The translations under genes and the position numbers were made by a program. Shown here piece by piece: positions 56,946 through 58,015 of a stretch of DNA of 64,000 bases. Below the pieces are notes generated by a model. It did not search any database. It saw nothing but the letters and a program-made list of their open reading frames with translations, and was not told where the DNA came from. Position 1 is the stretch's first letter. Every line of letters begins with the position of its first letter. Where the stretch lies: the NCBI RefSeq assembly GCF_003334405.1, contig NZ_QOWM01000004.1. One strand, written 5' to 3'. The stretch comes from Escherichia coli. Its GTDB lineage: Bacteria > Pseudomonadota > Gammaproteobacteria > Enterobacterales > Enterobacteriaceae.

Positions 56946-58015
56946 ATGACCCGTCCGATACAGGCCAGCCTCGATCTGCAGGCATTAAAACAGAATCTGT
57001 CCATTGTCCGCCAGGCCGCGACGCACGCGCGCGTCTGGTCGGTGGTAAAGCGAACGCTTACGGGCATGGTATTGAGCGTATCTGGAGCGCGATCGGGGCC
57101 ACCGATGGCTTTGCATTGCTTAACCTGGAAGAGGCAATAACGTTACGTGAGCGCGGCTGGAAAGGACCGATCCTGATGCTGGAAGGATTTTTCCATGCTC
57201 AGGATCTGGAGATTTATGACCAGCACCGCCTGACCACCTGCGTACACAGCAACTGGCAGCTCAAAGCACTGCAAAATGCGCGGCTAAAAGCACCGTTGGA
57301 TATTTATCTTAAAGTGAACAGTGGGATGAATCGGTTGGGCTTCCAGCCCGATCGCGTGCTTACCGTCTGGCAGCAGTTGCGGGCAATGGCGAATGTTGGC
57401 GAAATGACCCTGATGTCGCATTTTGCCGAAGCGGAACATCCTGATGGAATTTCCGGCGCGATGGCGCGTATTGAGCAGGCGGCGGAGGGGCTGGAGTGTC
57501 GGCGTTCGTTGTCCAATTCGGCGGCGACTCTGTGGCACCCGGAAGCGCATTTTGACTGGGTTCGGCCTGGCATTATTTTGTATGGCGCTTCGCCGTCCGG
57601 TCAGTGGCGTGATATCGCCAATACCGGATTACGTCCGGTGATGACGCTAAGCAGTGAGATTATTGGTGTCCAGACGCTAAAAGCGGGCGAGCGTGTGGGC
57701 TACGGCGGTCGCTATACTGCGCGCGATGAACAGCGAATCGGCATTGTCGCCGCAGGGTACGCCGACGGTTATCCGCGCCACGCGCCTACCGGTACCCCTG
57801 TTTTAGTGGACGGCGTGCGCACCATGACGGTGGGGACCGTCTCGATGGATATGCTAGCGGTCGATTTAACGCCTTGCCCGCAGGCGGGTATTGGTACGCC
57901 GGTTGAGCTGTGGGGCAAGGAGATCAAAATTGATGATGTCGCCGCCGCTGCCGGAACGGTGGGCTATGAGTTGATGTGCGCGCTGGCGCTACGCGTCCCG
58001 GTTGTGACGGTGTAA
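56946..58015 (+). pseudogene. dadX: Catabolic alanine racemase dadX with an apparent -1 frameshift at 57047..57049
   Basis: ORF 56946..57140 (MTRPIQASLDLQALKQNLSIVRQAATHARVWSVVK then out of frame) and ORF 57116..58015 ([17 protein letters not shown]... to the normal C-terminus) are in different frames; adding one A to the AAA run restores [33 protein letters not shown]. Confidence 0.8.

Follow-up and report, generated by a model that had tools for sequence, protein, structure and literature searches.

The dadX gene of Escherichia coli encodes a catabolic alanine racemase, and in the 64-kb stretch of E. coli DNA analyzed here (hereafter, the window) its reading frame is interrupted by the apparent loss of one base from a short run of adenines. 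The question raised by this locus is whether the missing base reflects an assembly error, a programmed slippage site that would still allow the synthesis of the enzyme, or a genuine strain-specific pseudogene. These three explanations had been left open by the initial annotation of the sequence; the last has held up and the other two have not. We consider it very probable that dadX is here a genuine, recent and lineage-specific frameshift pseudogene.

At the A-run of dadX (57047-57049, + strand) the window reads GTGGTAAAGCG, with three A, whereas alignments to MG1655, ETEC4073 and FDAARGOS_1337 give GTGGTAAAAGCG, with four A, in all three references. Positions 57040-57052 consist of c-ggt-ggt-aaa-gcg and the reading continues as aac-gct-tac-ggg, which in the frame of dadX corresponds to the codons GTG (33), GTA (34), AAG (35) and CGA (36). 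When the window is compared base by base with MG1655, AAA for AAAA is the sole difference around the lesion, and the complete gene is identical to its MG1655 counterpart at 1070 of 1071 nucleotides. The one-base homopolymer deletion is thus borne out, with the sequence as originally quoted, and the alignment to MG1655 dadX that had been proposed as a check returns precisely one missing A. The position of the lesion requires a small correction, as the deletion had been placed right after the lysine codon. In the wild type the run is made up of the last base of the Val34 codon (GTA) and the whole of the Lys35 codon (AAA), and the lost A sits within it; Lys35 is retained, now as AAG, and the frame is altered from codon 36.

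The truncated frame of dadX extends over 56946-57140 (+ strand), from the ATG at 56946 to a TAA at 57138-57140, and comprises 64 codons plus the stop; residues 1-35 are wild-type, including Lys35, and residues 36-64 are out-of-frame. The stop after 64 codons agrees with what had been claimed for this frame, while the "~300 codons" said to lie in another frame amount to 321. These codons (36-356 plus stop, 57050-58015, + strand) lie one base out of register with the ATG at 56946 and stay open, in the frame starting at 56948, up to the normal dadX stop at 58013-58015. The longest ATG-initiated ORF in the shifted frame encodes 279 aa (57176-58015, + strand; protein P0006) and is the one called by gene callers in three of the public assemblies discussed below (L006, L008 and L009); a 299-aa version starts with a TTG at 57116. 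The 279-aa fragment is annotated with both Pfam domains, Ala_racemase_N and Ala_racemase_C; its product lacks the pyridoxal phosphate (PLP) lysine and would be catalytically dead if made. The DNA encodes the N-terminal PLP-attachment motif V-x-K-A-[ND]-A-Y-G-H-G in two pieces, with VVK read in frame 1 and ANAYGHG in the frame displaced by the deletion. No single uninterrupted ORF contains the lysine and both domains, the ATG frame ending after 64 codons. The exact 64-aa product is found in a collection of 15 billion proteins, with about 12 public contigs encoding it; the wild-type, in-frame DadX sits on at least 1000.

The identity of the gene as dadX, with its PLP-lysine motif, is confirmed by its neighbors and by the protein obtained on restoring one base. 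In E. coli K-12, dadX (b1190) occupies the same locus as the second gene of dadAX and encodes a catabolic PLP-dependent alanine racemase. One A restored in the window allele yields exactly the K-12 protein WP_000197881.1, and the window differs from K-12 in being short of this A at codons 34-35, with the frame broken after Lys35. The restored 356-aa protein matches the solved structures 2ODO and 1RCQ over residues 3-352 (E = 1e-101 and 1e-100, respectively), and the counterpart of Lys35 in 1RCQ is the lysine of the conserved K-A-[DN]-A-Y-G-H-G motif (AVIKADAYGHG). 1RCQ is the DadX of P. aeruginosa, and the lysine of this motif carries PLP. Comparison with the references reveals that the rest of the gene is otherwise identical to the wild type, with no secondary decay, and it is because of this identity that the event is considered recent. 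To judge from its sequence, the locus is dadX by descent and, as written, a pseudogene.

The surroundings of the lesion are those of an undisturbed operon. The first gene of dadAX, dadA (55638-56936, + strand), encodes the D-amino acid dehydrogenase and is annotated under this name in relatives; it had been described as intact, and indeed its 432-aa ORF shows zero differences from that of FDAARGOS_1337, the closest genome found. The ATG of dadX at 56946 lies ten bases past the dadA stop, in the same arrangement as in MG1655, and the gene order ycgB, dadA, dadX and convergent cvrA is shared with K-12 and other annotated strains. More broadly, the window is collinear with K-12-like genomes of phylogroup A. 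The e14 prophage is absent, and icd (28395-29645) has its native 3′ end (window 29481-29696) where MG1655 has the phage-borne version. On these grounds the strain appears to be a natural e14-free relative of K-12 (ST10-complex-like) and not a K-12 derivative. Eleven SNPs and 2 one-base gaps separate the window from MG1655 over the 50.3 kb compared, excluding the e14 junction; 7 SNPs and 3 gaps separate it from ETEC4073, one of these gaps being the pdeG frameshift of ETEC4073 itself; and 4 SNPs and 2 gaps are found with respect to FDAARGOS_1337 over all 64 kb.

Two SNPs and two indels, four changes in all, occur in the window lineage and in none of these three genomes, and are called private here. 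Both SNPs are C>T transitions: the first, at 32290, lies between bluF and bluR, and the second, at 59463, is synonymous in cvrA (Leu225, TTG>TTA). The indels are the loss of one A in dadX (A4 to A3, placed at 57046-57047 in the alignments) and the loss of one A at 41472-41477, in the 3′ end of ymgJ, where an A6 run has become A5 (41473-41477). The latter shifts the last ~13 codons of ymgJ, which starts with a GTG at 41332, and is immediately followed by the ATG (41477) of an annotated 39-aa hypothetical ORF; an exact look-up of the altered YmgJ products in a public protein collection retrieved no match, and this second deletion could be a consensus error. A private set with as many indels as SNPs is unusually rich in indels, which might be explained by an episode of mismatch-repair mutator activity or by residual consensus error; mutS, mutL and mutH map outside the window.

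The explanation that deserves most attention as an alternative is that the strain truly carries AAAA and that one homopolymer base was lost from the consensus, either in sequencing or in assembly. Several features of the data are compatible with such an artefact. Each of the two private indels of the window (41472 and 57046-57047) is the loss of a single A from an A-run, there are as many private indels as private SNPs (2 of each), a high share of indels for natural divergence, and the products of the second deletion have no match. Moreover, the A3 allele is absent from complete RefSeq genomes: a search with an 81-nt query centered on the dadX deletion matched 4,607 complete E. coli genomes, none of which carries A3, the best identity being 98.8%, equivalent to one gap. 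A 40-mer carrying the deletion likewise found 0 matches in JGI metagenome contigs.

Against an artefact stands the reproduction of the deletion in three otherwise error-free Logan assemblies of public sequencing runs, belonging to different accession series. The first (L006, from ERR3469010, on a 45-kb contig) is 100.000% identical to the window over 17,055 nt, the second (L008, from ERR1948962) over 13,714 nt, and the third (L009, from ERR271225, with the contig present in 3 samples) over 11,338 nt, in every case with the deletion included. The private SNP at 59463, located 2.4 kb away from the lesion, is also present in L006 and L008, the two run assemblies that reach this position. The neighboring genes are all intact in the three assemblies, and, although their overlaps with the window hold 152-230 homopolymers of at least 4 bases each, the run in dadX, a short homopolymer in itself, is the only one altered with respect to relatives. 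This clean pattern does not fit a noisy platform. The deletion is present as well in an ENA metagenome scaffold (L011) with intact neighbors and 2 SNPs relative to the window. As for the window, it groups with these clean assemblies and is not generally error-ridden, having one other indel in 64 kb compared with FDAARGOS_1337, and the many nearby homopolymer indels and broken genes that would betray a poor consensus are not observed. An assembly error is very unlikely, given that the deletion recurs in independent run assemblies alongside a private lineage SNP. A3 thus appears to be a true allele, carried by a lineage for which several sequencing runs exist, on the inference that these runs are independent of the data underlying the window; a literature search on the run and assembly accessions turned up nothing.

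The same A4-to-A3 gap also appears, among many other gaps, in four noisy assemblies (L007, an NCTC assembly, L010, L012 and L022), which indicates that the site can be mis-called on error-prone platforms and counts in favor of an artefact; in these assemblies, the gap is plausibly a platform error. L007 (GCA_900449955.1, UGFF01000002.1) contains 7 single-base gaps in 17 kb, and single-base homopolymer gaps interrupt its dadA, ycgB, treA and dadX alike. The resulting 64-aa fragment of dadX has been deposited as STM34404.1, "alanine racemase, catabolic", so that an error-derived fragment now stands in protein databases. L010 and L012 are K-12-like and show 3-4 gaps in 4-8 kb (4 gaps in 4.4 kb for L012); in addition to the dadX gap, they share a C5-to-C4 gap in dadA (window-equivalent position 55780), which suggests recurrent, platform-specific homopolymer mis-calls at fixed sites.

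The pseudogene reading is in keeping with the existence of other natural null alleles of dadX. Among public E. coli assemblies, G74* nonsense alleles are found in two (L018 and L021) and a W47* nonsense allele in another (L020). Further lesions include a 4-bp deletion (L024), a 10-bp deletion (L025), IS1 insertions with a 9-bp target duplication at nt 208-216 of dadX (L023 and L026), and other single-base deletions in codons 36-41 (P0002-P0005). Apart from the single-base deletions, these lesions are of kinds that cannot be read errors, and together they show that the gene is dispensable. Like the window allele, these nulls are sporadic losses of function within the first ~80 codons, with intact neighbors, a position that is biased by the retrieval, in which only lesions upstream of codon 78 could be recovered. 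On the other hand, the window allele is a separate mutation arising from an independent event, and it differs from the other nulls in being a homopolymer slip that could be reverted by the gain of one base. A literature search for natural dadX frameshifts yielded unrelated papers only.

Such a collection of nulls invites the proposal that some commensal or ST10-complex E. coli have lost dadX convergently and as an adaptation, with A3 acting perhaps as a revertible, slightly leaky hypomorph. We regard this proposal as very unlikely. The number of null alleles is what is expected for any dispensable gene given the hundreds of thousands of public E. coli data sets, and it is not evidence of selection.

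With dadX taken as a genuine pseudogene, the origin and consequences of the lesion can be outlined. A replication slip would have removed one A from the AAAA that spans codons 34-35. Ribosomes starting at the normal ATG would then produce a 64-residue peptide that keeps Lys35 and misses the rest of both alanine-racemase domains, and any products restarted downstream would lack the PLP lysine, so that, considering the fold, little or no active DadX is expected. It has been established that E. coli possesses two alanine racemases, Alr and DadX, and that only alr dadX double mutants need D-alanine (PMC5394271, PMC9942566), which is the reason why a dadX null is viable. In line with this known physiology, D-alanine prototrophy would be kept through the constitutive racemase Alr, and deletion of alr alone should turn this strain into a D-alanine auxotroph. 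The inducible route from L-alanine to D-alanine and pyruvate, catalyzed by DadX and then DadA, would be weakened, probably resulting in poor growth on L-alanine. The loss of dadX is therefore expected to be tolerated, since Alr supplies D-alanine, at the cost of poorer L-alanine catabolism. No polar effect is expected either, as no gene of the operon follows dadX and the downstream cvrA is convergent.

A different way of preserving the gene would be a programmed, or at least functionally significant, -1 frameshift on GUA-AAG that provides useful amounts of full-length DadX, leaving the gene still functional. The sequence is such that, if tRNA-Lys slipped back by one base (-1) from AAG onto the AAA that overlaps it, translation would continue into exactly the wild-type protein. 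The site in dadX also contains A-AAG, a motif at which E. coli ribosomes are prone to shift, as exemplified by dnaX frameshifting. In the dnaX type of -1 frameshift, A-AAA-AAG is combined with an upstream SD-like element and a downstream hairpin, and the shift leads to a functional product, as it would in the window dadX. The likeness is limited to this outcome and to the A-AAG lysine slip motif, and dadX lacks the tandem slippery heptamer, the stimulatory hairpin and a conserved frameshifted arrangement. There is no X-XXY-YYZ heptamer because, at G-GUA-AAG, the P-site GUA cannot re-pair on GGU, and only the A-site lysine codon can do so. A search for a stimulatory hairpin or pseudoknot in the 81 nt downstream (57050-57130) found none, the RNA folding no better than shuffled sequence (MFE of -23.6 versus a shuffle mean of -23.8, z = 0.07). 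The flanks are plain coding sequence that thousands of genomes with an in-frame dadX share without change, nothing having evolved around the site, and the arrangement itself is unconserved, none of the 4,607 matched complete genomes having the deletion. Without stimulators, the efficiency of frameshifting is expected to be well under 1%. Functionally significant frameshifting is accordingly extremely improbable; the allele could at most be slightly leaky, spontaneous -1 slippage on A-AAG allowing traces of wild-type DadX.

Just as hard to credit is a phase-variable switch, in which the A-run would work as a contingency tract toggling dadX within populations. The lesion is a change in homopolymer length and might in principle be reverted by a +1 slip. 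However, contingency loci typically contain mutable tracts of at least 7 nt, and a tract of 3-4 bases falls far below this length. Furthermore, A4 is found in all 4,607 matched complete genomes, A3 occurs together with a linked private SNP, in the manner of a clonal marker, and the other dadX nulls are irreversible in type (nonsense codons, IS1 insertions and multi-base deletions). Transcriptional slippage was rejected, a run of 3 nt being far too short by established knowledge.

As a genuine pseudogene, the window allele is an ordinary, strain-specific one of a well-known non-essential gene and is not novel in kind. The locus should be labeled as one frameshifted dadX pseudogene rather than as two genes, and the 64-aa entry STM34404.1 illustrates how such fragments come to be mis-annotated. 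For the lineage carrying A3, the predictions are weak growth on L-alanine and D-alanine auxotrophy upon deletion of alr alone, which might serve as a single-step containment marker. The locus also offers a worked example of how independent public run assemblies can separate a real homopolymer frameshift from a platform error. Elsewhere in the window, the ycgH autotransporter gene (37669-40316, + strand) corresponds to a locus that the annotations of MG1655, ETEC4073, FDAARGOS_1337 and NCTC9038 give as a pseudogene with a frameshift and an internal stop; the window shows no indel relative to MG1655 or FDAARGOS_1337 in this gene and should therefore share the old pseudogene.
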